64,000 nucleotides of DNA from Deltaproteobacteria bacterium. Its GTDB lineage: Bacteria > Desulfobacterota > Syntrophobacteria > BM002. Under the pieces are notes generated by a model. The model did not search any database, was not told where the DNA came from, and saw nothing but the letters and a program-made list of their open reading frames with translations. The first letter of the stretch is position 1; every line of letters begins with the position of its first letter. The stretch lies in the NCBI GenBank assembly GCA_020353155.1, contig CP070689.1:1038302-1102301 (forward strand). The letters run 5' to 3'. Positions 7,000 through 54,929 of the stretch are shown here, in pieces. The position numbers were made by a program, and so were the translations under genes.

Positions 7000-7237
7000 G
7001 TTAGTATAGTGTTTTTACTTGCCCTTGTTCAAGCCAAAAGCACAAACTTGAAGCAGACACACCCGGAGAACCAATCATTGATCTGGTCTCAGAGCGAGTT
7101 TGTTGGGCAGCAATGGCAGCTAGTTGCAGAAGTGATGGAGCGAGAGTTATTAGAGATTGTTGATTGCAGATTTCAGATTTTAGATTTAAGATTACAGGCT
7201 GTGAAAACACTAAAGCTTAAAATTTAGGAGCCAATCA

Positions 7238-8752: not shown

Positions 8753-9277
8753 ATGAACCTTTCATTCAGAGGTGTTGAGCCGGTGGTAGATCCCAGCGTG
8801 TATGTGGCCCCTGGAGCTGTCATCATAGGGGATGTGGTCATCGGCCCAGAGTCGAGCATTTGGTTTGGAACTGTAGTTCGTGCCGACGTGCACTACATTC
8901 GCATCGGGGCCCAAACTAATATCCAAGACCAGTGTATATTGCATGTAACTGGTGGGACCCACCCACTGAATGTGGGTAACCGGATTACTGTAGGACACAG
9001 GGCTATCATTCACGGTTGCACTATTGAAGACGGTTGTCTTATTGGCATGGGGGCAGTGTTATTGGATGGCTGTCACGTGGGTAGTGAAGCCATAGTAGCT
9101 GCAGGATCTGTGGTGTCAGAAGGAAGCCACATTCCCCCCCGCACTCTTGCCATGGGATTACCTGCAGAACCTCGCCGAGCGATTACCGAAAAGGAACTGG
9201 CCCGGGCTAAGTACTCTGCCTCGCATTACATAGAGCTCGCCCAGATATACCGACGTGAGCATACTCCCGAGGCATAG
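8753..9277 (+). CDS. gamma-carbonic-anhydrase-family / hexapeptide-repeat protein (YrdA/PaaY-like)
   Basis: 174 aa. Left-handed beta-helix repeats (VIIGDVVIGPESSIWFGTVVRAD...). Starts 4 nt after the upstream stop. Confidence 0.8.
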   Translation: MNLSFRGVEPVVDPSVYVAPGAVIIGDVVIGPESSIWFGTVVRADVHYIRIGAQTNIQDQCILHVTGGTHPLNVGNRITVGHRAIIHGCTIEDGCLIGMGAVLLDGCHVGSEAIVAAGSVVSEGSHIPPRTLAMGLPAEPRRAITEKELARAKYSASHYIELAQIYRREHTPEA

Positions 9278-9396
9278 AGCATGGGGCATGGAGCATAGAG
9301 TCATTTCTCATTGCTCATTTCTCATTGCACATTTGAAGCTAAGGAGCACTATACAAAAATGAGAAATGAAAAATCCTAAATGCGAAATGTGAAATT
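9271..9396. repeat. word-array palindrome (GGCATAGA-type array, then CATTTCTC / GAGAAATG hairpin)
   Basis: GGCATAGAGCATGGGGCATGGAGCATAGAG overlaps the stop codon. Arms 9302-9334 and 9357-9395 are inverted degenerate 8-mer arrays. Confidence 0.8.
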
Positions 9397-9700: not shown

Positions 9701-9774
9701 CGATCTCCTTGTTCTCTAGAGCGGGTAACAGAGACTATAATAATAGCTGCTGAAGCACAAGGAAAGACGTCGAG

Positions 9775-10012
9775 CCCGGATATTACATGAATCACCTGCT
9801 GCGACCACGAAACTGGGAACCCGCTTGCGGGACTGAGCGGAGCGCAGCGAGCGCGAATAATATGGCCGTCCTCCCTGGCGTCCTCGGGTGTCGGCCCCTG
9901 CGACGTACCGTTAAGGTACGCCTCGGGACCAATCCCGCGGTCCCGCGGGACGGTTGCCAGGTGGCACGCCCATCTTCGCGGTCTCGCGACAGCAATTCAT
10001 GAAACATCCGGG
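9775..10012 (+). repeat. MITE-like GC-rich palindromic element, type A, copy 1
   Basis: Terminal inverted repeats CCCGGATATTACATGAAT / ATTCATGAAACATCCGGG. The 3' ~130 nt is ~85-90% identical by eye to 27415-27546. Confidence 0.8.
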
Positions 10013-10239
10013 CTAGAATTTAAATGTAGAACACTCTAGATCTTTTTATAGCTTTTTGTCTAGGTCAAGAAGCCTCAAAAAAGGTATTTCCCTAAAAATT
10101 GCACTAATATAATTACATTTTTGTGGTTGCATGTGATTTTGTTATTGAGTATGTTTTTTCTGTTTACCAACACCTTCATATAATCCTTTCGTAGGGTTTT
10201 TGTGCGACGGTGGAAGGTATTTATGGCAGGGATAAAGCA

Positions 10240-19807: not shown

Positions 19808-19920
19808 GGAGTCCTGGAGTAATGAGGAAGGTTTCAGTGTTCAGGTCTATCATTTCTGAGACCTGACACCTGAAATCTACATTCTGGAATCTAAAATCGC
19901 TGCACTCCATTACTCCAGAT
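19808..19920. repeat. nested word-array palindrome
   Basis: Outer arms CTGGAGTAATG / CATTACTCCAG. Inner arms AAGGTTTCAGTGTTCAGGTC / GACCTGACACCTGAAATCT. Confidence 0.7.
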
Positions 19921-21839: not shown

Positions 21840-21993
21840 GGACGCCTCACTGCAGGTAAGCTGTGGTAGGGGGTATTATACCTCAGTATCGTCTCTGTTT
21901 TAAAGCCATGAGCCCAGATGGTTGCAGATCCAGAGGCTCTGGCCTTCCATGGACAGAAGAGAGCTGGCAGCTGACAGCAGACTGCCAGGGAAA

Positions 21994-22172
21994 CTAGGCA
22001 CTAAGCACTAGGCACCAAATTATTGAAGAATTCAGGAGTCAGCATCCAGAATTCAGGAGGCAAGAACATGAAGATCGTTTTTCCATTCTAGCTACTGGCT
22101 CCTAACTCCTGTCTCCTTGAGCCCTAACGATTTCAACGATTTGAACGGCTTGAACGATTTTAACGATTTGAG
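21994..22172. repeat. word arrays (CTAGGCAC, GAATTCAGGAG, AACGATTT types)
   Basis: CTAGGCACTAAGCACTAGGCACC; GAATTCAGGAGTCAGCATCCAGAATTCAGGAGG; AACGATTTCAACGATTTGAACGGCTTGAACGATTTTAACGATTTGAG. Confidence 0.75.
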
Positions 22173-22299: not shown

Positions 22300-23829
22300 A
22301 TGGCTCTCCGAATTCTAATTGTTGTCACCCTGGCCGGCTCGTTTCTGTTGTGTACAAGCGCCAATATTTCCGACGCGGCCGCCATGGAGGGTAATACTAT
22401 GGAGTTGGAACAAATCCGTGAGTCGGTGATTGCCGGATCCTGGTATCCGGGGAATGCTTCTCGTCTGCAGCTGGAAGTCCAAGCCTATCTCAGCCAAGCT
22501 TCGGTTGCGGATTTCAAAGGACAACTGATTGCGCTCATATCACCCCATGCTGGTTACCGCTATTCTGGACAGGTTGCTGCCTATGCTTACAAGGTCCTGG
22601 AAACACTAAAATTCGATACTGTAGTGGTAATTGCTCCGAGCCATAGGGCTTACTTTAAAGGTGTATCCGTGTATGACCGAGGAGGCTACCGCACGCCACT
22701 TGGAGTAGTGCCACTAGACAGGCAGTTGGTGGCTGAACTCAAGGAACGTGAAAGTCGAATTAGCTATGTTCCCAAGGCCCATAGCCAGGAACATTCCCTT
22801 GAGATCCAGCTTCCCTTTATTCAGGTTGTTATGCCTGAAGGCAAACTTGTTCCTCTCGTCATGGGGGATCAGAGTTTTGACACCTGTCAGTGGTTAGCCC
22901 AAGCGCTGGCGCACTGCATTAGGGATAAGTCGGCAGTAGTGGTAGCAAGTTCTGATCTGTCCCATTTCCATCCGTACAAAGAGGCAAAAAGACTGGATCA
23001 GGTGGTGATTGACAGGGTGAATGAATTTGATCCGCGGGGGTTGAGCGATGATCTGGCCGGGGGCAAATGCGAGGCCTGCGGGGGCGGTCCTATGGTTACT
23101 GCCATGTTGCTTGCCCGCGAATTAGGGGCAAATAAGAGCCGCGTGCTGCACTACGCTAACTCTGGCGATGTTACTGGTGATCATAGCGGCGTGGTGGGTT
23201 ACATGGCCGCTGCTTTGTGGACGAACCCTAAAAAACCCAGAGGGCAACACCAGGGAGATCAAAGGCTTGGGGTGGATTTGGGGCTCACCTCAGAGGAGAA
23301 AGTGCAACTGCTAAAGATTGCTAGAGATGTTGTGGAGGCCTGCTGCCGGGGCGGGAAGCCCCCTAAGCCTGAAGTTGTTTCTCCCACCTTGAATGAGCCA
23401 AGGGGTGCATTCGTCACCCTCCACAAGGATGGAAAACTCAGGGGGTGCATAGGTCACATTCGGGCGCAAAAACCTTTGGTTGAGACTGTTGTCGAGATGG
23501 CGGAGGCCGCTGCCTTTCAGGATCCCCGTTTTCCCCCCGTAACTTCAAAGGAGTTAGGTCAGCTGGAGTATGAGATTTCTGTTCTCACCCCACTTAGACG
23601 AATCAAAAATGTGGAAGAAATACAAGTTGGAATACATGGAATTTACATGAAACGTGGCGCCTCGAGTGGACTGCTGTTGCCGCAAGTGGCAACTGAATGG
23701 GGCTGGGACCGCGTCACTTTTTTGGAACACACCTGCACCAAGGCTGGGTTACCGGAGGATGCCTGGAAGGACAAAAAAACAGAGATATATATCTTTTCTG
23801 CTGATGTATTCTCGCCAGACGACTTATAA
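22300..23829 (+). CDS. AmmeMemoRadiSam system fusion: Memo-like (protein B) + AMMECR1 (protein A)
   Basis: N-terminal half GSWYPG...ISPHAGYRYSG...VVIAPSH (Memo). C-terminal half RGAFVTLHKDGKLRGCIGHI...GLLLPQVA (AMMECR1). The N-terminus MALRILIVVTLAGSFLLCTSA looks like a signal peptide. Confidence 0.85.
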   Translation: MALRILIVVTLAGSFLLCTSANISDAAAMEGNTMELEQIRESVIAGSWYPGNASRLQLEVQAYLSQASVADFKGQLIALISPHAGYRYSGQVAAYAYKVLETLKFDTVVVIAPSHRAYFKGVSVYDRGGYRTPLGVVPLDRQLVAELKERESRISYVPKAHSQEHSLEIQLPFIQVVMPEGKLVPLVMGDQSFDTCQWLAQALAHCIRDKSAVVVASSDLSHFHPYKEAKRLDQVVIDRVNEFDPRGLSDDLAGGKCEACGGGPMVTAMLLARELGANKSRVLHYANSGDVTGDHSGVVGYMAAALWTNPKKPRGQHQGDQRLGVDLGLTSEEKVQLLKIARDVVEACCRGGKPPKPEVVSPTLNEPRGAFVTLHKDGKLRGCIGHIRAQKPLVETVVEMAEAAAFQDPRFPPVTSKELGQLEYEISVLTPLRRIKNVEEIQVGIHGIYMKRGASSGLLLPQVATEWGWDRVTFLEHTCTKAGLPEDAWKDKKTEIYIFSADVFSPDDL

Positions 23830-23830
23830 G

Positions 23831-23990
23831 CAGAGGTCAGACGACCGAGGACAGACGACAGAAGTCAGAAGTCGGAGATCAGAGGTCAGACGATTCAAGT
23901 TCCAAGTTCAAAGTTAAGAGCTAAGAATGCAAGAATTCCGCAGCTTACCGGCTACCGTTTACCGTTTACGATATAATCGATTTCAACGGT
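23831..23990. repeat. word arrays (CAGAGGT, CAAGTTC, ACCGTTT, ATCGATTT types)
   Basis: CAGAGGTCAGACGACCGAGGACAGACGACAGAAGTCAGAAGTCGGAGATCAGAGGTCAGACG; TTCAAGTTCCAAGTTCAAAGTT; ACCGTTTACCGTTTACG. Confidence 0.75.
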
Positions 23991-23999
23991 TTTTAGCAG

Positions 24000-25169
24000 A
24001 TGGAAAAAAGCATTAGCAGGCGAGATTTCCTGAAACGATGCGGCCGTTGTGCCCTGCTGGGTTTGACTCTTGAGTCCCTTGTCTTGACGACGACTGCCTC
24101 CCGTTCGCAGGCCTTGGGTTTGAAGAAAGGTTTCCTGGGCCGCAAGCTTTCCCCTTTTTTCACTCCCCTTGAAGATGGTAGCGTAAGGTGTGAGCTTTGC
24201 CCCCACCTTTGCGAAGTGGAGGTGGGTGAAAGGGGCTATTGTGAAGTTCGGGAAAACATTGGTGGCCGCTACTATTCGCTGGTCTACGGTAACCCCTGTG
24301 CAGTTCATGTGGACCCCATAGAAAAGAAGCCTTTTTATCATGTTCTCCCCACAAGTCGTTCTTTCTCTATTGCCACTGCGGGATGCAATTTCGATTGCAA
24401 GTTTTGTCAAAACTGGGAAATCTCACAGGCTCGGCCGGACGACACCCACAATTACGACCTGCCCCCTGAACAGGCGGTAGAGCTGGCCTTAAGGTACAAA
24501 TGTCAATCCATCGCTTCCACTTATGTGGAGCCCACAATCTTCACCGAATACATGATCGACATTGGTATACTTGCTCAAAAGCAGTCCGTCTTGAAGGTAA
24601 TGCATTCCAACGGATACATCAACCGGGCCCCCCTACAGCAACTGGGTAAATATCTTAACGCTGCTTGCATCGATCTCAAGGGTTTCAGTGAGTCCTACTA
24701 CCGAAATCTTACCGAGGGATCTCTCGAGCCTGTACTGGAGACACTTAAAGGGCTGAAGAGTTTGGGTATTCACACTGAAATTGTCAATTTGGTGATTCCA
24801 GGCAAAAATGATGATATGGAACAGGTGGCTGCCATGTGCAGGTGGATCAAGAAAGAACTAGGGCCAGATGTGCCATTGCACTTCAGCCGTTTTTATCCTC
24901 TCTACAAACTAAAAAGTTTACCACCAACCCCGGTATCTACCCTGGAGCGAGCTCGAGACAAAGCCCTCAAGGAGGGCCTCCATTTTGTCTACATTGGTAA
25001 TGTGCCCGGTCATCCTGGCGAACACACTGAATGTCCCCGATGCAAAACCAGGATTATTCAGCGTTGGGGATACAAGGTCCAGGTGTTGCATCTAAAAAAA
25101 GACCGCTGTGACCGGTGTGGCCAGCCAATACCCGGGATTTGGCAACATCCACTGCTAAATTCCACCTAG
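24000..25169 (+). CDS. AmmeMemoRadiSam system radical SAM enzyme with twin-arginine signal
   Basis: CNFDCKFCQNW (CxxxCxxC). N-terminal SRRDFLK followed by a hydrophobic stretch. C-terminal CPRC...CDRCG. Confidence 0.85.
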   Translation: MEKSISRRDFLKRCGRCALLGLTLESLVLTTTASRSQALGLKKGFLGRKLSPFFTPLEDGSVRCELCPHLCEVEVGERGYCEVRENIGGRYYSLVYGNPCAVHVDPIEKKPFYHVLPTSRSFSIATAGCNFDCKFCQNWEISQARPDDTHNYDLPPEQAVELALRYKCQSIASTYVEPTIFTEYMIDIGILAQKQSVLKVMHSNGYINRAPLQQLGKYLNAACIDLKGFSESYYRNLTEGSLEPVLETLKGLKSLGIHTEIVNLVIPGKNDDMEQVAAMCRWIKKELGPDVPLHFSRFYPLYKLKSLPPTPVSTLERARDKALKEGLHFVYIGNVPGHPGEHTECPRCKTRIIQRWGYKVQVLHLKKDRCDRCGQPIPGIWQHPLLNST

Positions 25170-26300: not shown

Positions 26301-26333
26301 ATAATAGTTTACGCAGTAACTAACCAAGAGTAA

Positions 26334-26525
26334 ACCCTAATGTTACCTGCCTACACCGCGGAAAACCGCTGCGCTCGCGCGATAGCACGTCATCTGTGGC
26401 TGTACTCGGCTCGGACAGGACGTCACGTACGGTCAAGTACGCATCGACCTGTCCGAGCCTGTGCGCAGCCATATCTGACGTACTCTGGCGCGTTTTTCGT
26501 CGTCATAGGCAGGTAACATTAGGGT
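26334..26525. repeat. MITE-like palindromic element, type B
   Basis: Perfect 20-bp terminal inverted repeats ACCCTAATGTTACCTGCCTA / TAGGCAGGTAACATTAGGGT. Internal stem GGCTCGGACAGG / CCTGTCCGAGCC. GC-rich. Confidence 0.8.
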
Positions 26526-26540
26526 AAGAGTGAGGTGTAT

Positions 26541-27368
26541 ATGTTTTGGCTTGTTTTGCTCCTATTATTCTGGCTAATGGGTGTTGCATTTACTTATTTG
26601 CTTTTCTATTACGAATCGGCAAATGGTCGGCACCTGGAGGTTCTGCGCTCAAGAGGTTCGGTGCCCATTATGATTCTCAGGAGTTTTTTCTGGAGTCTAT
26701 ACAGCCATTTGCTCGTCTTACTGACGGCAACAACTGCTTTACACCGCGATTACTATAGCTTGCCAGTTGGCCCGGCCGATAGAACTCCGATTATCTTTGT
26801 CCATGGACTGTATCACAACCACACGGCCTGGTACCTTTATCTTCGCTGGTTTCGCCGCTGGGGTTGGAGCCATATGAAAGCAATTAAATTAAAGGGGAAA
26901 TTTCGATCGATCAATGAGTTTGCCCGGATTCTGGCGGAGGAAGTCGAAAAAGTAATGGCTGAAACCCAAAGCGAGAAGGTGGATTTGGTCGGTCAGAGTA
27001 TGGGCGGACTTGTGATCAGATCTTATCTGGCGGAAGACTCTGGCCGAGCTAAAATCCGCAGAGTCGTCACCCTTGGTAGCCCTCATAGAGGCTCAAAGCT
27101 AGCAGTTTTCGGCCTGGGTCAAGCAGCAAAGGAAATGGTTCCTGGGAGTGCATTTCTGGAATCACTGAACCAGGGTGTCCAAATTCCACAAGATGGTCGT
27201 TTTTATGCGATCTACACACTTGTGGACAACATGGTTCTGCCCAACGAATCTACCAAGCTTACCTGGGATGGAGTGAAGAACTTGGAGACTCGAATTGTAA
27301 ATCACGTGGGCTTAGCGTATTGCAAACATACGGCACGCTTAGTGAAAGAGTGCCTGGAAGAGGATTAA
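26541..27368 (+). CDS. alpha/beta hydrolase (lipase/esterase-like)
   Basis: IIFVHGLYHNH and the nucleophile elbow GQSMGG. N-terminal TM helix. Start ATG 26541 follows GAGG. Confidence 0.75.
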   Translation: MFWLVLLLLFWLMGVAFTYLLFYYESANGRHLEVLRSRGSVPIMILRSFFWSLYSHLLVLLTATTALHRDYYSLPVGPADRTPIIFVHGLYHNHTAWYLYLRWFRRWGWSHMKAIKLKGKFRSINEFARILAEEVEKVMAETQSEKVDLVGQSMGGLVIRSYLAEDSGRAKIRRVVTLGSPHRGSKLAVFGLGQAAKEMVPGSAFLESLNQGVQIPQDGRFYAIYTLVDNMVLPNESTKLTWDGVKNLETRIVNHVGLAYCKHTARLVKECLEED

Positions 27369-27546
27369 CCCGGATGTTTCATGAATTGTTTACTACGATC
27401 ACGGATATGGGCATCCTTCCGTGCGTCCTCGGGTGTTGGCTCCTGCGACGTACCGTTCAGGTACGCCTCGGGACCAATACCCTGCGGTTGCCCGGTGGCA
27501 CGCCCATCTTCCTGGTCTCGTGACAGCAATCCATGAAACATCCGGG
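27369..27546 (+). repeat. MITE-like GC-rich palindromic element, type A, copy 2
   Basis: TIRs CCCGGATGTTTCATGAATTG / CAATCCATGAAACATCCGGG. Begins at the first base after the hydrolase stop codon. Confidence 0.85.
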
Positions 27547-27564
27547 TTAGGACAGGAGAGGAAA

Positions 27565-28152: not shown

Positions 28153-28229
28153 GTTTTCAGTATTCAGGTTTCAGGTTTTGGCCTCCCTATTTCCTACTCC
28201 TCATACTTGCTACCTGAAACCTGACAACC
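28153..28229. repeat. word-array hairpin (CAGGTTT / CCTGAAA type)
   Basis: GTTTTCAGTATTCAGGTTTCAGGTTTT pairs with ACCTGAAACCTGACAACC. Confidence 0.7.
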
Positions 28230-28413
28230 AGACCTATGAGATCAAAAAGGCTAAATTTATTTCAGTAGAGGCTTGTATTGTTAGGGCAGGGCAATTTTGT
28301 TATAGTGAGCCCGCTCTAAGCTAGTAGGGCACATGGAGATAAGCTACCTAGTGGCCTTAGCGTCCTTCGCGGATTAATCTTTAAAACTGGAAAATTCTGA
28401 TAGGGCGAAAAAA

Positions 28414-30135
28414 ATGACAGAATGGCAACAGAGACTGGCCAGGCGGATTGAAGCGGCCAGGGGTGATAGGCCAGTGGATCTCCTTTTTCGGGGGGCAAAG
28501 GTGGTCAACGTTTTTACTGGGGAGCTGGTCTCAACCTCCGTTGCCGTATTCGATGGCGTGATCGTTGGCTTTGAGGATCGTCAGGCAAGGGAGGTTGTTG
28601 AGCTAAATGGTGCCATTCTCTCCCCAGGCTTTATTGACGGCCACTTTCACCTAGAAAGCAGTCTGCTGGTACCAGGAGAATTTGCCAAAGCAGTACTTCC
28701 CCACGGCACCACTACGGTGGTGGCTGATCCGCATGAGATCGCCAATGTCGCAGGGGTCGACGGTGTTCAATTTATGCTCGAGGCCAGCGAGGACATAGGG
28801 CTTGAAATTTTCTATATGGCCCCTTCCTGTGTACCGGCTACTCACCTGGAGACAGCCGGAGCGGAATTGACTGCCAATGACATTGAAAGATTAGCCCAAC
28901 ATCCAAGAGTTATAGGACTCGCGGAGATGATGAACTTTCCAGGTGTGATTTTTGGTGATCCCGCAATCTTGGACAAGCTTGATCGTTTTCGGGACAAGGT
29001 AATTGATGGACACTCTCCGGGTCTCAGCGGCGCTTCACTGGACGCCTATTTGTGTGGTGGGATTGGGTCAGATCACGAGTGTACTCGACTGGAAGAGGCC
29101 AGGGAGAAGCTCGCCAAAGGGATGCACATCATGTTGCGGGAAGGGAGTCAGGCGCGAGATCTAGAAGCCTTGGCTCCTCTGGTAACCGCAAAAACGAAAC
29201 ACCGTTGCATGTTGGTGAGCGACGACTGCCATCCGGAAGACCTCCTCGAGCACGGGCACATGAACCGGGTTCTCAAGAGGGCTTCTGAGTTGTCCATCGA
29301 CCCAATAAGCGGCATCCAACTAGCAAGTCTTAATCCAGCCCGCTACTTTGGCTTGCGCACACTGGGTGCGATTGCTCCAGGCTATCAGGCGGATATGGTG
29401 GTCCTCAGATCGCTGGAATCGTTGGAAGTGTCCAGAGTATACAAAAAAGGTCAACTAGTTGCCAAAGAGGGTAAATGCTTGCTACCCGACCCAGCAGCCG
29501 GAGTAAAAACTGAGCTTATTTCTATGAAACTAGGGGAATTGAGAGAAGACGACCTGCACATTCAGATCGAAGGTACTAGGGTAAGGGCTATCCGAGCTGT
29601 GCCCAACACCTTGATAACCGAAGAGGAGATTCTCCCGGTAGCGGAAAGGCAAGGTGCGGCCGTGAGTGAGCCGGAGCGAGACTTACTCAAGATGGTTGTG
29701 ATCGAGCGACACCGTGGCAGCGGTCGTAGGGGTTTTGCTTTTATCCGCGGGCTTGGTCTCCGCCAAGGAGCACTTGCCTCAACAGTGGCCCATGATTCTC
29801 ACAATCTTATTGTAGTTGGGGCCAATGACTCGGATATGGTAGTTGCAGCAAATGTTTTAAGAGAGTTGGGAGGAGGACTAGTAGTGGTTAGGGATGGCCA
29901 AGTTGAAGCGTTGCTGCCGCTGCCTGTTGCCGGTCTGATGTCTAATGCTTCCCTGAAACGAGTGGTGGAGTTGAAAAAAGAGGTCGACCAGGCCGCCCTA
30001 GAGCTTGGGGCCACTCTGGAACAACCATTCATGGCCCTATCCTTTATGGCCCTACCAGTAATACCTAAATTGAAGCTAACAGATCAAGGGCTGGTTAATG
30101 TTGAAAGCTTCAACCATGTACCATTGTTTGTTTAG
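28414..30135 (+). CDS. ade: adenine deaminase
   Basis: 573 aa. SPGFIDGHFHLESS, TTTVVADPHEIANV and MAPSCVPAT motifs are characteristic of Ade. Confidence 0.85.
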   Translation: MTEWQQRLARRIEAARGDRPVDLLFRGAKVVNVFTGELVSTSVAVFDGVIVGFEDRQAREVVELNGAILSPGFIDGHFHLESSLLVPGEFAKAVLPHGTTTVVADPHEIANVAGVDGVQFMLEASEDIGLEIFYMAPSCVPATHLETAGAELTANDIERLAQHPRVIGLAEMMNFPGVIFGDPAILDKLDRFRDKVIDGHSPGLSGASLDAYLCGGIGSDHECTRLEEAREKLAKGMHIMLREGSQARDLEALAPLVTAKTKHRCMLVSDDCHPEDLLEHGHMNRVLKRASELSIDPISGIQLASLNPARYFGLRTLGAIAPGYQADMVVLRSLESLEVSRVYKKGQLVAKEGKCLLPDPAAGVKTELISMKLGELREDDLHIQIEGTRVRAIRAVPNTLITEEEILPVAERQGAAVSEPERDLLKMVVIERHRGSGRRGFAFIRGLGLRQGALASTVAHDSHNLIVVGANDSDMVVAANVLRELGGGLVVVRDGQVEALLPLPVAGLMSNASLKRVVELKKEVDQAALELGATLEQPFMALSFMALPVIPKLKLTDQGLVNVESFNHVPLFV

Positions 30136-30297
30136 GGCATGGAGCATAGGGCATAGGGCATAGAGCGTAGGGCATAGAGCGTAGGGCATAGAGAAATATA
30201 GCTGACAGCCTGCAGCTAGCAGTCGCCAAAGGGCAGCTAAGAGAGATCAGAGGTCAGAGGTTAAAGCTGATCTCTGACATCCGACTTCTGACCTCTG
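30135..30297. repeat. composite word-array element (GGCATAG array + CAGC-rich module + CAGAGGT hairpin)
   Basis: A run of GGCATAG(A/G)-type octamers starts at the stop codon. The W2 hairpin AGATCAGAGGTCAGAGGT...TGATCTCTGACATCCGACTTCTGACCTCTGG follows. Confidence 0.85.
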
Positions 30298-30319
30298 GAA
30301 TAGACGACCTGAACGATCG

Positions 30320-33217
30320 GTGCATATGCAAAGTTTCATTGAATTCTTGAAAACGGCCCAGCTTCCGGGGGCGCGCCTGGTACATCATGAGTTCATTCCA
30401 AGTCGGAGAGCCGTATATGGTAATCTCCACCCGCCACTTGCCCCGCCGCTGAGTTCCGCTCTTGCAAATTTAAATATCAGCAAACTTTATAGCCATCAGG
30501 TAGAGAGTCTCACCAGCTTTCGCCAGGGTGAAAATGTGGTGGTAGCCACACCCACGGCCAGTGGCAAATCCCTCATTTACAACTTGGCCCTTGTAGAGTT
30601 GCTTAGTGAGAAATCTGCTGGCCACGGACTCTACCTCTTTCCTCTCAAAGCCCTGGCGCAGGATCAATACCAGGCCTTTGTCGCAATAAATAAAGCACTG
30701 CCTGAGGAACTCCAATTGCAGGCTGCCGTTTATGATGGAGATACCCCTTCGAGTCAAAGGCGCAGAATCAAAGAAAAATTGCCCCATTTGATTATTTCGA
30801 ACCCTGACATGCTCCATTTGGGTTTTTTGCCCTTCCATCAACAATGGGAGAAATTTTTTCGAAATCTACGTCTTGTGGTAATCGATGAGGTTCACACATA
30901 TCGGGGCATTTTTGGCTCGCACGTGGTGCAAGTACTGCGGAGACTGCAAAGGGTCTGCCGGCTCTATGGATCCCAGCCTAGGTACATTTTGCTCTCTGCT
31001 ACTATTGAGAACGCCAGGGATTTCGCTAGCAGGTTAACCGGCATGGAATTCAGGGCGGTGGAGCAAAATGGCGCACCCCAGGCAGGAAGGCATTTCTTTT
31101 TCGTAAATCCTGATATAAGCGCTACTACTGTAGCAGCACGTCTCTTCGTCAAAGCACTGCAAAGAAACCTCAAAACAATCGCATTTACCCAGGCTCGCAA
31201 GCTTACCGAAATCATCCACATGAACGTGGCTGAAGCAATTCCGGAGCTTGCCTCTAAGGTCAGCTCGTATCGGGCTGGGTTTCTCGCTGAAGAGAGGCGA
31301 GATATAGAGAAAGGTTTGGCTAGCGGCTCAGTGGCTGGAGTAATCTCTACCAGCGCCCTGGAAATGGGCATTGACATTGGCGGTCTGGACGCCTGTATCT
31401 TAGTTGGATATCCCGGCACTATCATCAACACCTGGCAGCGCAGTGGCAGGGTTGGACGAGGAGGGAGCGATTCACTGGTGATTCTTATAGCCCAGCCCGA
31501 TGCTCTCGATCAGTATTTTATGCGCCATCCTGCAGACTTTTTCCAACGTCCTTTCGAGGCGGCAGTGGTGGATCCAAATAATTCTGAAGTTTTGGACGCC
31601 CATCTGCCTTGCGCTGCTGCAGAGATTCCTCTGAATGGAAGTGATGACCTCTACAATAATAAAGGTGTTCTAGCTTCTCGGGCGCCGGTGCTTGAGGCAA
31701 GCGGTGCTCTGTTGAGAAGCGCAGAGGGCGATGTCTGGTATGCAGCCAAGAAACGGCCTCAGCGTTTGGTGGATATTAGGAGTGTAGGCGAAGGTTATGT
31801 CATTCTTGCTGGGTCCAATGAGAAAGCGATAGGTAAGAACGATGGAGTAAGGGTTTTCAAGGAATGTCATAAAGGGGCAATCTATCTCCACAGAGGCCAG
31901 CAGCACCTGGTGACCCACTTAGACCTAGAACGGAAGAACGTTTTTGTTAAGCCCACCAAGGTTCGCTATTATACTCGGGCCCTCAGTGAGAAGGAGACTG
32001 AAATCCTGGCGGTAGATAGGAGCCGACCAATTGCCAATTTCATCGCCCGGTTGGGTCGTGTCCGAGTTACCGAGCAGGTTGTCGGATATGAAAAGCGCAA
32101 TCGCTTCAGCGGAGAGCTTTTGGATAGCCTTTCTCTGGACCTGCCTTCGCAGAGTTTTGAGACCATCGGTTTCTGGCTGGAAATCGAGGACATTCTCCAA
32201 GAGATGGTGCGGCAACGGAAGCTCCATTTTATGGGGGGCATCCACGCACTTGAGCATGCCCTGATTAGCATGTTTCCCCTCTTCGCCCTATGCGACCGCA
32301 ACGACATCGGGGGCATTGCCGTCCCCCGCCATTTGCAGCTACAAAAGAGTGCTGTTTTCATTTACGACGGATACCCTGGAGGGGTGGGTTTGGCGGCAAG
32401 AGGATTCGAGCTGATAGAGGAACTTCTGCAAAAGACTGTAGAACTCATTGCAGCCTGTCCGTGTGATCTTGGATGTCCCTCCTGTATTCATTCACCAAAG
32501 TGCGGCGCAGGTAACAAGCCTCTGGATAAGACCGCGGCTTTATTTCTTGCCAGGGGCTTGCTTGGTGAGCTTTCCCTAGAACTGAAAGCAGAAGAGGACA
32601 GTCAGTTAGTTGTGGCCGAGGAAATCGGGGCAGCAAAAAGGAGCAGTGAACCGAATGTTGCCTTTTTTGACCTTGAAACACAAAGGTTGGCTGATGAAGT
32701 GGGTGGGTGGGGTAACGTCCACCTGATGCGGTTGGCGGTGGGGGTACTTTACGATAAAAGTTCCACTGGATTCGAGGTCTTTGCAGAGGAGCAGGTCGAA
32801 AACTTGATAGAAAGGTTAAAGGGGTTCGATCTAGTGGTGGGTTTTAATATCAAACGGTTCGATTATAGGGTGTTGGCAGCCTACACTGGTTTCGATTTCC
32901 GCCATTTACCCACCTTCGATATCTTAGAAGATATTTACCAACGGTTGGGGTTTCGTCTAAGCCTGGGCCACCTGGCTGAGCAGACTCTAGGGAAAGCCAA
33001 GATTGCCGATGGCATTCAGGCGGTTCGCTGGCTCAGAGAAGGAAAACTTGATGTAGTAGTTGAATACTGTAAAGATGATGTGACCATTACCAAAGATCTC
33101 TTCGACTTCGGTCTCAACAACGGCTATTTAGTCTATCAGACGAGAGATGGGCAGCCGGTCCGACTGCCGGTCGATTGGAATTTGGACAGTATCCTCAGGG
33201 AAGCAATTCGGAGCTGA
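30320..33217 (+). CDS. MrfA/YprA-type DEAD/DEAH helicase with DUF1998 zinc module fused to a C-terminal DEDD-type 3'-5' exonuclease domain
   Basis: TPTASGKS, VIDEVH, LSAT, QRSGRVGRGG. CPCDLGCPSCIHSPKCGAGN. C-terminal FFDLETQ, VGFNIKRFD, YCKDDV. A likelier start is ATG 30326. Confidence 0.8.
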   Translation: MHMQSFIEFLKTAQLPGARLVHHEFIPSRRAVYGNLHPPLAPPLSSALANLNISKLYSHQVESLTSFRQGENVVVATPTASGKSLIYNLALVELLSEKSAGHGLYLFPLKALAQDQYQAFVAINKALPEELQLQAAVYDGDTPSSQRRRIKEKLPHLIISNPDMLHLGFLPFHQQWEKFFRNLRLVVIDEVHTYRGIFGSHVVQVLRRLQRVCRLYGSQPRYILLSATIENARDFASRLTGMEFRAVEQNGAPQAGRHFFFVNPDISATTVAARLFVKALQRNLKTIAFTQARKLTEIIHMNVAEAIPELASKVSSYRAGFLAEERRDIEKGLASGSVAGVISTSALEMGIDIGGLDACILVGYPGTIINTWQRSGRVGRGGSDSLVILIAQPDALDQYFMRHPADFFQRPFEAAVVDPNNSEVLDAHLPCAAAEIPLNGSDDLYNNKGVLASRAPVLEASGALLRSAEGDVWYAAKKRPQRLVDIRSVGEGYVILAGSNEKAIGKNDGVRVFKECHKGAIYLHRGQQHLVTHLDLERKNVFVKPTKVRYYTRALSEKETEILAVDRSRPIANFIARLGRVRVTEQVVGYEKRNRFSGELLDSLSLDLPSQSFETIGFWLEIEDILQEMVRQRKLHFMGGIHALEHALISMFPLFALCDRNDIGGIAVPRHLQLQKSAVFIYDGYPGGVGLAARGFELIEELLQKTVELIAACPCDLGCPSCIHSPKCGAGNKPLDKTAALFLARGLLGELSLELKAEEDSQLVVAEEIGAAKRSSEPNVAFFDLETQRLADEVGGWGNVHLMRLAVGVLYDKSSTGFEVFAEEQVENLIERLKGFDLVVGFNIKRFDYRVLAAYTGFDFRHLPTFDILEDIYQRLGFRLSLGHLAEQTLGKAKIADGIQAVRWLREGKLDVVVEYCKDDVTITKDLFDFGLNNGYLVYQTRDGQPVRLPVDWNLDSILREAIRS

Positions 33218-37620: not shown

Positions 37621-37663
37621 CAGTGAAATTTTAATTGTTTATAGATAACAAATTTGTATACAG

Positions 37664-37687
37664 AGTCCGCGGCTGCGGACTTTTTTC
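37664..37687 (+). terminator. Rho-independent terminator candidate
   Basis: AGTCCGC-GGCT-GCGGACT followed by TTTTTC. Confidence 0.6.
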
Positions 37688-37695: not shown

Positions 37696-37746
37696 GAAGG
37701 TTTCAGCCCTATGTTTCTTTTTCCTGAAACCTGAAACCTGACACCC
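37696..37746. repeat. word-array hairpin (CCTGAAA type)
   Basis: GAAGGTTTCAG pairs with CCTGAAACCTGAAACCTGACACCC. Confidence 0.6.
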
Positions 37747-39139: not shown

Positions 39140-39146
39140 AAGAGTA

Positions 39147-39295
39147 GTTCAAAGTCTCAAGTTCTAGGTTACAAGTTTTCTTAACCCTCCAAAGTTGAAG
39201 ATCAAACTGGTATTGGTCAGATAGACCTGGTGATGAAATTCTGTAGCTGTGCACTGTAATTTTGAACGTTGAACTTTGAACTTGGAACTTGAACC
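39147..39295. repeat. word-array palindrome (CAAGTTC / GAACTTG type) abutting the next start codon
   Basis: GTTCAAAGTCTCAAGTTCTAGGTTACAAGTT pairs with TTGAACGTTGAACTTTGAACTTGGAACTTGAACC. Confidence 0.75.
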
Positions 39296-40426
39296 ATGTC
39301 TCATTCAATGCGTATAGCTTTCTATGCCCCTTTAAAACCGTTGGACCATCCCCATCCTTCCGGTGACCTTGTCATAGGAACAGGTCTCTATCACTTCCTT
39401 GGAGGCAGGGGCCATCAGATAGGCAGAGTAAGCCGCCTCCGGGCTCGTTGGATTTACTGGAAACCTTGGCTCTGGCCCCAGGTTGTGCGAAATCGAAATA
39501 GATCTTTGAAATATTGCCAAACAATGGCAGCTGATCTTTGGCTGACCTATCACAGTTACTACAAAGCACCTGACCTACTCGGTCCTTCCTGCTGCCGCCG
39601 TCTCGGTATACCCTATGTTATCTTTCAAGGCATCTACTCGACCAAGCGGCGGAAGCACTGGACCACTTGGGCTGGATTTGTCCTGAATCGGCAAGCACTC
39701 CTAACTGCGCACCACGTTTTCACCAACAGGAAAGAAGATTTGGTCAACCTGACAAGAATAGTGCCTGAAAAAAGTCTTACCTATGTAGCGCCTGGTATTT
39801 TTACGGAACAGTTCTTTTTTGATTTAGAGTCTCGCAAACAGCTGCGGCGGCAAATGGATATCTCTGACGGATTGGTGGTAGTTACCGCTGCCATGTTCCG
39901 ACCAGGGGTCAAGACCGAGGGGCTTTCTTGGGTTATTCGCTCATGTGGAGAGCTCTTTAGAAAGAATGTTCCTTTGTATCTGCTGATAGCTGGCGATGGA
40001 AAAGAAAGCCCCCGTCTTCGCCAGATGGCAGACCAGTGGCTCCCGGGGCGAGTTCGATTTCTTGGCAAGGTGCCACGAGAGGAAATGCACCGTTTTTACA
40101 GCGCCGGAGATTTATTTGCCTTTCCCGGTATTCGTGAGTCCTTGGGCATGGTGTACTTAGAGGCTCAGTCCTGCGGTTTACCGGTAGTGGCCTTTGCTGA
40201 TGGAGGCGTGCCGGAGGTGGTTGCGGATGAAGTGAGCGGTTATCTGGTGCGGCCCTTCGATGTCAGCGGATTCAATCAGGCTATTGTTCGGCTAGTGGAG
40301 GATTCCGCCATGAGAAGGCAGATGGGAAAAGCTGCGAGCGATTATGTGCGGAGCCGGCACGATCTACGTACGAATTATCGAATCGTGGAGGATATTTTGT
40401 TAGGCCTTGCGCAGGGCAAGGGGTAA
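39296..40426 (+). CDS. glycosyltransferase family 4
   Basis: ESLGMVYLEAQSCGLPVVAFADGGVPEVVADEVSGYLV. Confidence 0.75.
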   Translation: MSHSMRIAFYAPLKPLDHPHPSGDLVIGTGLYHFLGGRGHQIGRVSRLRARWIYWKPWLWPQVVRNRNRSLKYCQTMAADLWLTYHSYYKAPDLLGPSCCRRLGIPYVIFQGIYSTKRRKHWTTWAGFVLNRQALLTAHHVFTNRKEDLVNLTRIVPEKSLTYVAPGIFTEQFFFDLESRKQLRRQMDISDGLVVVTAAMFRPGVKTEGLSWVIRSCGELFRKNVPLYLLIAGDGKESPRLRQMADQWLPGRVRFLGKVPREEMHRFYSAGDLFAFPGIRESLGMVYLEAQSCGLPVVAFADGGVPEVVADEVSGYLVRPFDVSGFNQAIVRLVEDSAMRRQMGKAASDYVRSRHDLRTNYRIVEDILLGLAQGKG

Positions 40427-40494
40427 GAGATCAGATATCAGATGTCTGAAGTCAGGGGTAGAGCTGATCTCTGATCTCCGACTTCTGACCTCTG
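40427..40494 (+). repeat. W2 dispersed hairpin element (CAGAGGT family)
   Basis: GAGATCAGATATCAGATGTCTGAAGTCAGG...AGCTGATCTCTGATCTCCGACTTCTGACCTCTG. Its core is shared with 30260-30320 and, inverted, with 63555-63661. Confidence 0.8.
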
Positions 40495-51946: not shown

Positions 51947-52022
51947 GGAAGGCGGAACGGGGAATGCGGAGTGGGGAACTTGGAAGGTGTTAATTCCGAA
52001 TTCCGAATTCCGAGTTCCCACC
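51947..52022. repeat. word-array hairpin between the two polytopic genes
   Basis: GGAAGGCGGAACGGGGAATGCGGAGTGGGGAACTTGGAAGG pairs with AATTCCGAATTCCGAATTCCGAGTTCCCACC. Confidence 0.7.
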
Positions 52023-53991: not shown

Positions 53992-54031
53992 GGCAAGCAC
54001 ATGTCGTTCAAATCGTTTAAATCGTCAAATG

Positions 54032-54205
54032 GTAAACGGTGAAGAGTAAACGGTACGAGATGTTACCCTTTATTTGTTATACGTTATTCGTTATAGGTAA
54101 AAGATCAGCGTGGAACTCGCTTTTCTCTTGCCTCTGATTTGTTGCTGCCTGCTGTCTTCCGACCTCTGACCTCCGACTTCTGATTCCTTACCCTATGCCC
54201 CATGC
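54032..54205. repeat. left copy of a long inverted repeat (IR-L)
   Basis: 54048-54205 equals the reverse complement of 60617-60795, with 2 mismatches and one 21-nt indel (aligned by hand). Confidence 0.9.
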
Positions 54206-54214
54206 CCTCCGCCT

Positions 54215-54826: not shown

Positions 54827-54929
54827 GGTAAACAGTAAACGGTGATGGGTAAACCGATTATTCGCTAGTTCCGCAACCATTTACCATTTACCGTTTACTC
54901 TTTTTTTCGCTATGCGCCATGCGCTATGC
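54827..54929. repeat. ~100-nt dispersed element E, copy 2 (upstream of the thioredoxin gene)
   Basis: Paralogous to 26204-26300. Same orientation relative to the downstream minus-strand gene. Confidence 0.8.

Follow-up and report, generated by a model that had tools for sequence, protein, structure and literature searches.

Tandem word arrays between the genes of a deltaproteobacterium and small PF05635 cassettes bracketed by the same words

Introduction

Records of tandem heptanucleotide repeats go back to 1990 in cyanobacteria and were later extended to Xanthomonas, Geobacter, Beggiatoa and Bacteroidetes. The STRR heptanucleotide sequences of filamentous cyanobacteria were reportedly described by Mazel and colleagues in 1990, and CCCCAGT, TTGGTCA and CAACAGT are the STRR words of heterocystous cyanobacteria. 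To our knowledge, there is no agreed origin or function for heptanucleotide repeats. Cyanobacterial STRR are tandem heptanucleotide repeats able to form hairpins (PMC2670836). The heptamer repeats GGGAATC of Xanthomonas and GGGGA(C/T)T of Nostoc are 89–93% intergenic, lie on average 28 nt from the upstream and 160 nt from the downstream ORF, form 70–75 convergent pairs per genome and vary in length between close species; the study describing them detected no link to mobile elements (Rehm et al. 2015, PMC4692102). Dozens of sites in Geobacter metallireducens were annotated as "global regulator binding sites" of classes 1–3 (Aklujkar et al. 2009, PMC2700814). ORF-bearing 23S rRNA IVS of Coxiella, Leptospira and others are bounded by inverted repeats, carry an S23p gene, sit at helix tips and have been proposed to be mobile (PMC4990558).

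The arrays described here occur in a window of 64,000 nt (the whole stretch of DNA that was analysed) from the MAG of an uncultured, sulfate-reducer-type, Syntrophobacterales-like deltaproteobacterium (G000), whose assembly is 89% complete and scaffolded, with gaps at repeats. Cumulative GC skew along its scaffolds is too weak and patchy to support an analysis of the arrays by leading and lagging strand. The arrays resemble STRR in that 7-nt units stand in tandem, each genome uses a few word families, intergenic sites number in the hundreds and hairpins can form; they differ in their deltaproteobacterial host and their vocabulary. With the Xanthomonas and Nostoc repeats they share intergenic location, proximity to the upstream gene, inverted pairs and length variation; those repeats, however, consist of one G-rich word, examined as a G-quadruplex former, whereas at least ten words, mostly not G-rich, nest in each other here. 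Like the Geobacter sites, also deltaproteobacterial, they comprise three to five tandem 7–9-nt units in opposite-strand pairs at variable distance, but the Geobacter sites were read as regulator binding sites, and nesting, an arm-order rule and a cassette link were not reported for them.

The likeness to the IVS lies in small size, an inverted-repeat stem, a PF05635 gene, an apparent position at the tip of an existing helix and a sporadic distribution. The IVS occupy helix 25 or helix 45 of 23S rRNA, whereas the window elements lie between protein genes and have no PF05635 gene; moreover, the arms here are tandem word arrays, and the ratio of gene-less to gene-bearing forms in G000 is far above 100:1. 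REP/BIME/REPIN elements and MITEs (Correia, ERIC) are likewise short, dispersed intergenic palindromes, often downstream of and co-transcribed with genes, with non-autonomous copies far outnumbering a gene-bearing relative. Unlike these, the elements here have internally tandem arms, which can therefore pair in several registers, and have variable length and unrelated loops, and many word families coexist and nest in each other. REP-type elements are imperfect palindromes of about 20–40 nt with a conserved sequence and an associated RAYT gene (tnpA-REP, a Y1 transposase); no RAYT is known to accompany the arrays.

Word arrays in the window and across the genome

The exemplar spacer, at 30133–30319, follows an adenine deaminase gene (28414–30135) and consists of four modules.

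30133–30193, + strand: GGCATAG-family array (consensus VGCATRG), 8.4 units, 5′-arm form, unpaired
30194–30241: CAGC-rich module with a small palindrome, TAGCTGACAGCCTGCAGCTA
30242–30297: CAGAGGT/ACCTCTG hairpin, arms 30242–30261 and 30272–30297, loop TAAAGCTGATC (−24.4 kcal/mol, z = −2.4)
30298–30319, + strand: remnant, ~2 units, of a 9-mer array (AACGAYTTG) which in orthologous spacers abuts the helicase start codon

The first TAG of the array at 30133 is the stop codon of the deaminase gene, a junction present with 2–8 units in most same-genus orthologous spacers. Each genome of the genus has dispersed copies of the CAGAGGT/ACCTCTG hairpin (80–92% identity). A preliminary description of the window had proposed that such stems pair in several registers, and this hairpin does so in two (78% and 93% complementary). 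Folding of the whole region 30130–30300 was no better than that of shuffles (z = 0.28), and only its sub-hairpins are significant. The remaining elements of the window are the following.

7149–7197, + strand: GATTKCA array, ~5 units, unpaired, in a divergent spacer
9272–9395: GCATRGA array on the TAG stop of the gene at 8753–9277, then a CATTTCT/AGAAATG hairpin (9302–9334, 9357–9389; z = −2.4)
19814–19918: two-layer nested hairpin, outer TGGAGTAATG/CATTACTCCA, inner TTTCAGG/CCTGAAA (19829–19878); z = −3.6
21993–22171: ACTAGGC array (3 units), a hairpin of GAATTCAGGAGTC and its complement (22026–22118), and five units of the 9-mer AACGATTTG
23831–23990, + strand: chain of CAGAGGT (~9 units, unpaired), CAAGTTC (3), ACCGTTT (3–4) and a 9-mer remnant at the next start
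28155–28233: TTTCAGG/CCTGAAA hairpin, 35-nt loop; z = −3.4
37696–37745: TTTCAGG/CCTGAAA hairpin, 5′ arm shrunk to one unit, 3′ arm of 3.3 units
39146–39294: CAAGTTC/GAACTTG hairpin, 80-nt loop, filling the spacer, with its end one base short of the start codon at 39296
40427–40494: CAGAGGT/ACCTCTG hairpin, directly 3′ of the stop of the gene at 39296–40426
51947–52018: GGAAYGSG/AATTCCG hairpin inside a gene cluster, flanked by two genes on the same strand
54004–54208, − strand: composite spacer from the thioredoxin-2 stop, with GGCATAG, CAGAGGT, CAGC, a unique core, ACCTATAACGAATA, ACCGTTT and a 9-mer
54830–55054: AAACGGT/ACCGTTT hairpin (54830–54903), CGCTATG array (54908–54929) and GATTGCG/GATTGCA units to 55054
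60598–60830, + strand: second copy of the composite spacer, beginning inside the last codons and TAG stop of a peptidase S58 gene (59631–60608)
63527–63662: CGGGCGAGA (2 units), the 9-mer TCGTTCAAA (3.6 units) and a CAGAGGT/ACCTCTG hairpin (63602–63656; z = −5.1)

Tandem 7–9-nt words are present at all 15 loci for which they had been claimed. Tandem Repeats Finder returned arrays of period 7, 8, 9 or 14 at 14 of them, and the fifteenth (19808–19920) is the two-layer nested hairpin, with too few units for that program. The part at 54830–54929 was absent from the earlier list. All window copies lie between protein-coding genes, there being no rRNA gene in the window, and Rfam gave no family match anywhere in its 64,000 nt. 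The hairpin at 37696–37745 follows a canonical terminator at 37662–37683, and the chain at 23831–23990 begins just past the TAA stop of the gene at 22300–23829. The composite spacers at 54004–54208 and 60598–60830 are 87% identical over 203 nt and have the same orientation relative to the upstream gene; this copy relation, overlooked when the two were first listed (as 54032–54205 and 60617–60815), is not a general rule.

Genome-wide, 1243 arrays of period 7 and 295 of period 14 were counted, with the higher-order periods 14 and 21 both present; period-7 arrays typically have 3–6 units (median 4). Intergenic DNA makes up 15% of the genome and contains 86% of the array bases, and its 1013 period-7 arrays compare with 8–14 in Markov order-3 and order-5 shuffles (~100-fold). 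Intergenic enrichment and an excess over chance are hereby confirmed. Some 20 of the 210 canonical heptamers supply most arrays, and ten word families comprise 1164 arrays of period 7 or 9. The arrays are less pervasive than the earlier statement that each spacer is built from them: of the 42 spacers in the window with a length of 40 nt or more, only 16 contain any (11% of intergenic bases), as do ~30% of spacers genome-wide.

Each word has 4–5 invariant and 2–3 free positions, identical on both arms, and the cores persist across hundreds of arrays. Such words resemble a recognition motif, and arrays of typically 3–6 units could be binding sites for a host DNA-binding protein, nucleoid-associated or a global regulator, an annotation given to the paired tandem-repeat sites of Geobacter metallireducens (PMC2700814). 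We regard this as very unlikely: at least ten unrelated word families would require as many binding proteins, the words are genus-specific, orthologous positions do not retain the sites, arrays are rarest in divergent (promoter) spacers, and the sole protein family that tracks the words is cassette cargo and not a host regulator.

Position relative to genes

Within spacers of 120–250 nt, arrays cover 14.0% of bases in convergent, 10.9% in same-strand and 3.5% in divergent arrangements. Array starts fall within 10 nt of the upstream stop in 130 of 743 cases and within the same distance of the following start codon in 36. The overlaps with stop codons at 9275, 30133 and 60606 and the abutment on the start codon at 39296, all reported previously, hold on inspection; across the genome, 72 stop codons lie inside arrays, and TAG accounts for 62% of these vs 35% of all stops. 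Unpaired arrays downstream of genes are biased to the sense orientation (ACTAGGC 49:12, CAGAGGT 45:15), which could reflect some transcript-level selection.

This sense bias, the preference for the 3′ sides of genes and the occurrence of arrays inside same-strand gene clusters would all suit RNA structures selected by the host, with transcribed hairpins acting as 3′-end stabilisers, processing sites (e.g., for RNase III) or cistron insulators. RNA fold prediction agrees in that the window hairpins fold better than shuffled sequence (z −1.9 to −5.1); in addition, RNase III cuts the IVS stems of related elements (PMC4990558), and a stabilising effect on transcripts has been proposed for the STRR hairpins of cyanobacteria (PMC2670836). 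Selection on sense-RNA stems would, however, give an excess of G·U pairs, and sense-strand G·U is not above A·C in same-strand (tandem) spacers (415 vs 443), so the mRNA 3′-end stabiliser role put forward in the preliminary description is unsupported. T-runs follow only 3.5% of word hairpins on the sense side (9 of 254) and are as frequent on the antisense side (10 of 254); given these equal rates, a role as intrinsic terminators was rejected. Long loops (median 31 nt), the lack of a partner for more than half of the arrays and the wholesale replacement of modules between species with 85% identical genes also speak against host-selected RNA structures, an explanation that we consider unlikely.

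Pairing, arm order and nesting

Complementary arrays lie at most 120 nt apart 101 times, vs 25 ± 5 when word labels are shuffled, and inverted pairing therefore exceeds chance. A partner within 250 nt exists for only about 35–45% of arrays, which falls short of the claim that modules are usually matched by a reverse-complement array. A hairpin finder run at +1/−2 with a minimum score of 14 returned too few pairs; its replacement detected 684 arm pairs, vs 79 in shuffled spacers, and arrangements that were nested in 60 cases, serial in 61 and crossing in 1, in line with the nesting first noticed in the window. Arm G+C is 43%. Loops within one hairpin family are mostly unrelated to one another, an outcome not expected had whole hairpins been copied recently.

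Every family has one fixed arm order (about 380 hairpins vs about 10 in the opposite order), irrespective of the strand that is read. The counts below are given as this order:opposite.

GGCATAG..CTATGCC, 53:6
ACTAGGC..GCCTAGT, 89:1
CATTTCT..AGAAATG, 79:0
GATTTCG..CGAAATC, 49:2
CAGAGGT..ACCTCTG, 25:1
GAGATGT..ACATCTC, 57:0
TTTCAGG..CCTGAAA, 28:0
AAACGGT..ACCGTTT, 22:0

A strand-independent order of this kind is expected from the terminal inverted repeats of a copied element. The spacers also have a single centre: adjacent arrays of different families run from 5′-form to 3′-form 84 times and in the reverse sense 7 times (p = 7e-18). Fixed arm order and single-centre syntax are new here and had escaped the preliminary description.

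Arm order also bears on whether the arrays could be a neutral by-product of replication, with slippage making the arrays and template switching their inverted copies and with no element or protein involved. Whole-unit number differences between species and the existence of periods 14 and 21 fit such a process, and heptamers are over-represented in bacterial repeats generally, with slippage as the proposed cause (PMC4692102). Fold-back copying should nevertheless give both arm orders, contrary to the counts above; a small vocabulary common to 18 genomes, core positions invariant across hundreds of arrays and the bracketing of PF05635 genes by the same words (88% vs 1% of other small genes) likewise count against this reading, which is in our view highly improbable.

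Three further ideas were set aside. A grammar of module order along transcription was dropped, the rule being that 5′-arm forms precede 3′-arm forms irrespective of strand. Partners of unpaired arrays were sought in the next spacer, and between-spacer matches were not more often inverted than direct at any distance. An origin of the arms in telomerase-like, independent extension of both ends of a break is disfavoured, since unit variants of one arm are mirrored in the other (31 of 32 positions at locus L126).

Turnover among sister genomes

The preliminary description suggested that the arrays may be a genome-specific family of REP-like elements. They are indeed REP-like palindromic intergenic repeats, specific to the lineage: the words are common to all 17 sister genomes of the genus and had no match in the other genera searched. 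The module content at a given position turns over between species of the genus. Orthologous spacers in 15 genomes differ by fast turnover, arm shrinkage and whole-unit changes in length, and species with 85% gene identity can have entirely different content at one site.

Several window sites illustrate this. The hairpin at 28155–28233 persists in G013 and G016, where its unit numbers differ, and the site at 37696 has ~4 units per arm in G013 vs the one-unit 5′ arm of G000. The hairpin at 40427–40494 is present in G013, with five other modules in its place in G016, and the inner modules of the chain at 23831–23990 differ in both genomes. At 21993–22171, a CAGAGGT hairpin replaces part of the site in G013 between conserved flanks, and at 39146–39294 both G013 and G016 have an unrelated 69-nt spacer. 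Elements are also observed within the centres of other elements. An earlier suggestion that the arrays serve as recombination substrates is plausible, with whole modules swapped at fixed boundaries between species and a 200-nt composite spacer occurring twice in the window.

PF05635 cassettes bracketed by the same words

G000 has a single PF05635 gene, located 12 kb beyond the end of the window, which itself contains none. To the left of this gene is a CAGAGGT array, and to its right the complementary array begins. The 17 sister genomes carry 1–14 PF05635 copies each, and inverted word flanks scoring at least 15 were found at 50 of 57 cassettes (88%), vs 1.0% of 1080 other small G000 genes. 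The arm words comprise GGCATAG/GCGCATAG, CAGAGGT, ACTAGGC, GATTKCG, GAGATGT, TTTCAGG, CAGC, CAGGAGT, GCGAGACGG, TGGAGTA and the 9-mer AACGATTTC, covering almost the whole vocabulary of the window; CATTTCT and AAACGGT arms were on none of the 57 cassettes examined. TGGAGTA arms, which bear on the hairpin at 19814–19918, bracket PF05635 genes in G007, G012 and G008. In every family with a measured order (which excludes the CAGC-rich words and the 9-mer), the cassette arms have the order of the gene-less hairpins. This link between the window words and gene-bearing cassettes is new here and was not part of the preliminary description; a literature search returned no paper linking PF05635 to heptamer repeats, and neither an arm-order rule, nor a single centre per spacer, nor a tie to cassettes turned up for STRR in the literature searched.

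Arm words follow the protein phylogeny, requiring 19 changes on the tree vs 38.8 for shuffled labels (none of 200 shuffles was as low), and related words fall in sister protein clades. Since relatives share labels, this match is not proof that the protein recognises its word. Cassettes of one type, alike in their inner junctions, recur at different sites (L134, L135 and L140; L115 and L129 in one genome), and one site can hold different types (CAGAGGT in G000, G004, G006 and G013, GCGCATAG in G009). Word bracketing of PF05635, with other words, extends to another delta-proteobacterial genome and a Chloroflexota genome. Among Cyanobacteriota, 42 of 101 genomes have PF05635, and inverted word flanks, again of other words, occur at 27 of the 30 loci examined; these include heptamer arrays of the TTGGTCA/ATGACAA type, which we take to resemble the STRR2 word.

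The cargo is a four-helix-bundle or GxxExxY protein, and we know of no biochemical activity for either. The solved PF05635 structure (2GSC) is that of a Xanthomonas campestris protein. As in MITEs, the gene-less forms share terminal inverted repeats with a gene-bearing element, in the same arm order where measured; unlike in MITEs, this partner has no known transposase, and comparison of same-type cassettes from different sites reveals no target-site duplication at their borders. Within G000, tblastn detected no gene remnants inside hairpin loops, and more than 1200 arrays of at least ten families coexist with one PF05635 gene and one GxxExxY gene. Derivation by decay is thus not seen in G000, and most families have no resident cognate gene. 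CAGAGGT, a family with a resident gene, is not better preserved than the others.

Discussion

The word arrays are probably gene-less derivatives and single surviving arms of IVS-like cassettes, i.e., STRR-type selfish repeats. The complete element would be a ~0.5-kb cassette composed of ~3–6 units of one word, mostly of 7 nt, a gene and a mirrored complementary run. Its gene would usually belong to the PF05635/TIGR02436 four-helix-bundle family (the 23S rRNA IVS family, related to Avd) and sometimes encode a GxxExxY protein, with arms and gene inherited and copied as one unit. The gene-less hairpins would derive from such cassettes or depend on them, and the window contains only these hairpins and single surviving arms. 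New elements may land at the centre of existing palindromes, which would generate both the onion-like nesting and the one centre per spacer. Each arm would gain and lose whole units by slippage, and frequent loss of one arm would leave the many unpaired arrays. Elements accumulate immediately 3′ of genes, a location in which they would be tolerated, and they sometimes supply the stop codon. They would most likely be selfish STRR-type DNA rather than host-selected RNA or regulatory structures. The interpretation offered in the preliminary description is, as a whole, partly supported.

A broader and distinctly more speculative proposal is that STRR-type repeats here and in cyanobacteria, Xanthomonas, Geobacter and others might all be traces of a single, undescribed mobile-element class. 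Its hairpin cassette might have arms of about five tandem words, read by its own homopentameric S23p/Avd-like four-helix-bundle protein at one word per subunit, with protein and word co-diverging and with insertion at hairpin or palindrome tips producing nested onions. Within this one-class reading, insertion at hairpin tips would explain the presence of the same protein family in rRNA helix tips as IVS.

G000 and its 17 sister genomes constitute a dense and tractable case in which three rules hold: arm order, one centre and a word-bracketed gene. Taken together, the rules supply a testable model for repeats hitherto unexplained, in which they stem from a small mobile cassette allied to the rRNA IVS. 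Should the model fail, an STRR-like repeat class in a new lineage still stands. If true, it would provide a first function for the large PF05635/TIGR02436 family, relatives of the Avd of diversity-generating retroelements, and would explain both a turnover of spacers far faster than that of genes and the rewriting of gene ends and stop codons. It would also be a warning to annotators and assemblers, as contigs break at arrays. The cassette link may, finally, explain a bacterial repeat class that has been unexplained since 1990.

Heptamer Arrays in Intergenic DNA

The source genome (G000) is assembled as a single scaffold of 3.21 Mb with 48.6% G+C, the window occupying G000:1038302-1102301, and the adenine deaminase encoded in the window has its best relatives in MAGs of uncultured Syntrophobacterales and 'Deltaproteobacteria'. 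Neither a tRNA nor an Rfam match was found in the window. The adenine deaminase-helicase spacer serves as the exemplar of the word arrays, one of which begins on a stop codon, as the preliminary description had it:

30133-30135, plus strand: start of the exemplar array, whose first TAG doubles as the stop codon of the adenine deaminase gene

The units of this array read TAG GGCATGG AGCATAG GGCATAG GGCATAG AGCGTAG GGCATAG AGCGTAG GGCATAG, giving 8.4 units with a superstructure of period 14 (matches 94%). They are followed by a CAGC-rich stretch and then by a hairpin with arms AGAGATCAGAGGTCAGAGGT / CTCTGACATCCGACTTCTGACCTCTG, which can pair in two registers (fold -24.4 kcal/mol, z = -2.4).

Tandem Repeats Finder retrieved 1243 arrays of period 7, 295 of period 14 and 55 of period 21 from the whole genome. 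Array bases are 86% intergenic versus 15% expected, as judged on a crude gene map (ORFs of at least 80 aa, picked greedily; 2957 genes on 84.5% of the genome), and intergenic DNA holds 1013 period-7 arrays compared with 8-14 in Markov order-3/order-5 shuffles, an enrichment of ~100-fold. Modules of the kind described were present at 15 of the 15 loci originally listed. The wording "each spacer" was nevertheless too strong, with arrays in 16 of 42 window spacers and on 11% of intergenic bases, as was "usually matched", with a partner array within 250 nt for ~35-45% of arrays.

The vocabulary is small: only 210 canonical heptamers occur in the arrays, and the top 20 make up most of them (ACTAGGC 128, CGGATTT 70, GCGGATT 55, AGGGCAT 54, AGAGCAT 53, CTCATTT 45, CAGAGGT 37, GAGATGT 36). 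The median array has 4 units (5-95% range 2.1-5.9). Within a word, 4-5 positions are at least 90% invariant and 2-3 are free, with an identical profile on both arms, yielding consensuses such as VGCATRG, CAGRRGW, ACTARGC, GATTKBR, CATTTNN, GRGATRT, ACYGYTT and CCTGAMA. The words look like motifs rather than perfect repeats in decay.

Palindromic Organisation

Arrays of complementary words are found within 120 nt of each other 101 times, versus 25 +/- 5 with word labels shuffled, while neighbouring arrays of the same sense are depleted (2 versus 25). An ungapped finder identified 684 arm pairs, spread over 578 of 2012 spacers, whereas shuffled spacers gave 79, so that inverted pairing exceeds what composition predicts. 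Where a spacer holds two arm pairs, they are nested in 60 cases, serial in 61 and crossing in 1; the nested palindromes first described are thus real. Furthermore, two rules absent from the preliminary description emerged. The first is a fixed arm order, each family existing as just one of the two possible palindromes.

Table. Arm order by word family (given order : opposite order)
GGCATAG..CTATGCC, 53:6
ACTAGGC..GCCTAGT, 89:1
CATTTCT..AGAAATG, 79:0
GATTTCG..CGAAATC, 49:2
CAGAGGT..ACCTCTG, 25:1
GAGATGT..ACATCTC, 57:0
TTTCAGG..CCTGAAA, 28:0
AAACGGT..ACCGTTT, 22:0

Since a palindrome is identical on both strands, this order is uninformative on transcription. The second rule concerns different families. 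With "+" denoting the left-arm and "-" the right-arm form of a word, adjacent arrays of different families are arranged (+,-) 84 times versus (-,+) 7 times (p = 7e-18), and all array pairs within 300 nt 172 versus 13 times, indicating that a spacer usually has one centre, with + forms to its left and - forms to its right. The same arrangement is seen where the two sides lack complementarity. In the window, the rule is kept at 9272-9395, 21993-22171, 23831-23990, 30133-30319, 54004-54208, 60598-60830 and 63527-63662; the lone (-,+) junction lies within 54830-55054.

Position Relative to Genes

In spacers of 120-250 nt, arrays cover 10.9% of bases between same-strand (tandem) genes, 14.0% in convergent and 3.5% in divergent spacers. 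Of 743 arrays in tandem spacers, 130 start no more than 10 nt from the upstream stop and 36 end within 10 nt of the next start; closeness to the upstream ORF is shared with the Xanthomonas repeats (Rehm et al., PMC4692102). Arrays contain 72 stop codons, of which 45 (62%) are TAG, versus 35% among all stop codons on the crude gene map, itself an unusually high share for a bacterium. In-frame read-through into arrays lengthens some C-termini, for example in the gene upstream of the PF05635 cassette described below (G000 1114230-1114330).

The preliminary description suggested that the hairpins stabilise mRNA 3' ends. Host RNA structures of this kind, whether stabilisers or terminators, are not supported: in tandem spacers, whose transcribed strand is defined, there are 415 G.U oppositions versus 443 of A.C, so the wobble signature of a selected RNA stem is absent. 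T-runs follow word hairpins as often in antisense (10 of 254) as in sense (9 of 254), loops are long (median 31 nt), and the window's only canonical terminator (37662-37683) is not made of words. On the other side, unpaired arrays of two families are biased to the sense orientation (ACTAGGC 49:12, CAGAGGT 45:15), which may reflect some selection at the transcript level. A role of the arrays as regulator sites is likewise not supported; these RNA and regulator-site readings are unlikely rather than refuted.

Turnover within the Genus

The adenine deaminase-helicase pair is syntenic in 17 genomes of the genus, each of which has matches to the exemplar spacer words at many further places; in genomes of other genera the genes alone are matched. 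The orthologous spacers measure 66-279 nt and, in most of the genus, open with a GGCATAG-type array of 2-8 units on the stop codon. At the start codon they end in the 9-mer AACGAYTTG, and their inner modules vary by species (CAGAGGT, CAGC, AATTTCG, GAGATGT, ACCGTTT, CTAATTT). In two sister assemblies, G011 and G006, contigs break exactly at this spacer; word arrays therefore fragment short-read assemblies, and MAG counts of repeats and cassettes are lower bounds.

A 20 kb syntenic comparison with sister genomes G013 and G016 (genes ~85% identical) revealed replacement at single sites. Between conserved flanks at 21993-22171, G013 has a CAGAGGT hairpin instead; the hairpin at 39146-39294 is missing in both; and site 40427 carries a CAGAGGT hairpin in G000 and G013, where G016 shows five different modules. 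The 5' arm of the TTTCAGG hairpin at 37696 consists of a single unit in G000 versus ~four in G013, a direct view of how unpaired arrays arise.

Elements also lie within the loops of others. In G013, a GC-rich repeat has a GATTTCG hairpin at its centre, a 23-nt palindrome occupies a hairpin loop in G003 that lacks it in G008, and multi-layer nests occur at further sites of G000. This palindrome belongs to a 19-23-nt mini-element (CCCTGAGCCTGTCGAAGGG and complement) that is found repeatedly at the centres of sister-genome hairpins and CAGC arrays (loci L093 in G003, L082 in G013, L122 and L137).

Other Repeats and Genes in the Window

A GC-rich dispersed palindromic repeat of ~185-250 nt, not built from words, occurs at 9770-10017, 26327-26527 and ~27365-27550. 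It ends in 23-nt terminal inverted repeats (TCGAGCCCGGATATTACATGAAT / ATTCATGAAACATCCGGGCTAGA), is present ~30 times in G000 and dozens of times in G013 and G016, and gave no Rfam match even at E = 1. A composite spacer of ~200 nt, with five word modules and a unique core, is present at 54004-54208 and 60598-60830, its only two full copies in the genome. The copies, 6.4 kb apart, share 87% identity, which points to the duplication of entire spacers from one site to another, perhaps through gene conversion seeded on arrays common to both; they are oriented alike relative to the upstream gene (thioredoxin 2, minus; peptidase S58, plus). Among the genes, a Memo-AMMECR1 fusion adjoins a radical SAM gene at 22300-25169, forming an AmmeMemoRadiSam trio with two parts fused, and the DEAD-box helicase at 30320-33217 is of the MrfA/HRQ1 type and carries both a zinc-binding domain and, at its C-terminus, an RNase H-like exonuclease domain.

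PF05635 Cassettes Bracketed by Word Arms

Word arms also bracket small genes, mostly of the PF05635 four-helix-bundle family, forming cassettes. Two cargo types occur in G000:

1114354-1114671: sole PF05635 gene of G000, 12 kb past the window end
3126005-3126394: gene for a GxxExxY protein (TIGR04256), a second cargo type, in a word hairpin

The PF05635 protein matches TIGR02436, and its relatives include Avd and the PDB structures 2RLD and 2GSC, the latter being XCC0516 of Xanthomonas campestris; its gene is preceded by nine CAGAGGT units and followed by CTGACTTCT and then scaffold N's. Sister genomes carry 1-14 copies each (17 genomes). Inverted word flanks scoring at least 15 were found on 50 of 57 cassettes examined (88%), versus 1.0% of 1080 other small genes of G000. 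The arm words comprise GGCATAG / GCGCATAG / GGCATGG, CAGAGGT, ACTAGGC, GATTKCG, GAGATGT, TTTCAGG..CCTGAAA, CAGC, CAGGAGT, GCGAGACGG, TGGAGTA, the 9-mer AACGATTTC and others, and their order equals that of the gene-less hairpins wherever measured. A conserved AAGGGGCAC lies upstream of most cassette start codons.

In a maximum-likelihood phylogeny of the 57 proteins, arm words change 19 times (minimum possible 16); shuffled labels gave a mean of 38.8, with 0 of 200 shuffles as low as 19. Related words fall in sister clades (GGCATAG, GGCATGG and GCGCATAG; GGGTACA with GGGTCAT; GTCATTA with its 14-mer form). Gene and arms are thus inherited as one, and the word-protein match is not proof of recognition, because relatives share labels. 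Near-identical GCGCATAG cassettes with the same inner junctions occupy three unrelated sites in three genomes, G016 has GGCATAG cassettes at two sites, and a single site is occupied by a CAGAGGT cassette in four genomes and by a GCGCATAG one in another. The same cassette at several sites and different cassettes at one site are evidence that the unit moves.

Bracketing with other words extends beyond the genus, to a distant delta-proteobacterial MAG and a Chloroflexota genome. In Cyanobacteriota, a PF05635 gene is present in 42 of 101 sampled genomes, and inverted word flanks accompany 27 of the 30 loci examined (words including GTGCTGA, GGTGACA, CAGGAGT and TTGGTCA / ATGACAA types).

A few ordinary-looking small genes of G000 sit at word-nest centres, with the 5'-form arm left and the 3'-form arm right:

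2258518-2258964, 516105-516644, 946344-946754, 1802384-1802911: small genes in nests

They encode a secreted 122-aa protein without a family match, a Nudix-like protein, a DnaJ-C28-like protein and a lipoprotein; other DNA may thus also be captured at the centres of nests.

Relation to Known Repeats and Origin of the Arrays

Heptamer arrays are known as short tandemly repeated repetitive (STRR) sequences in cyanobacteria (PMC2670836), as GGGAATC and GGGGAYT repeats with convergent pairs in Xanthomonas and Nostoc (PMC4692102), as paired tandem-repeat sites in Geobacter (PMC2700814) and as TAACTGA repeats in Beggiatoaceae, cyanobacteria and Bacteroidetes (PMC4679880). The four papers make no link between the repeats and PF05635 or a mobile element, and a full-text literature search found no publication linking heptamer repeats to PF05635. 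Intervening sequences (IVS) encoding the same protein have inverted-repeat borders, lie at rRNA helix tips and are cut by RNase III, and their mobility was proposed (PMC4990558); they have the protein family and inverted-repeat bounds in common with the cassettes.

The word arrays are a real STRR-like class in a new lineage, and their nested, single-centre organisation is equally real. The best-supported reading derives the arrays from IVS-like cassettes, as gene-less descendants or surviving arms that act as selfish DNA. Against it stand the >1200 arrays of G000 versus one PF05635 gene, the failure to find gene remnants in G000 hairpin loops, the mostly unrelated loops inside one family, and the observation that the family with a resident gene is no better preserved than others. 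In addition, the cargo proteins have no established activity, no target-site duplication was seen, and CATTTCT and AAACGGT arms occur on none of the 57 cassettes examined.
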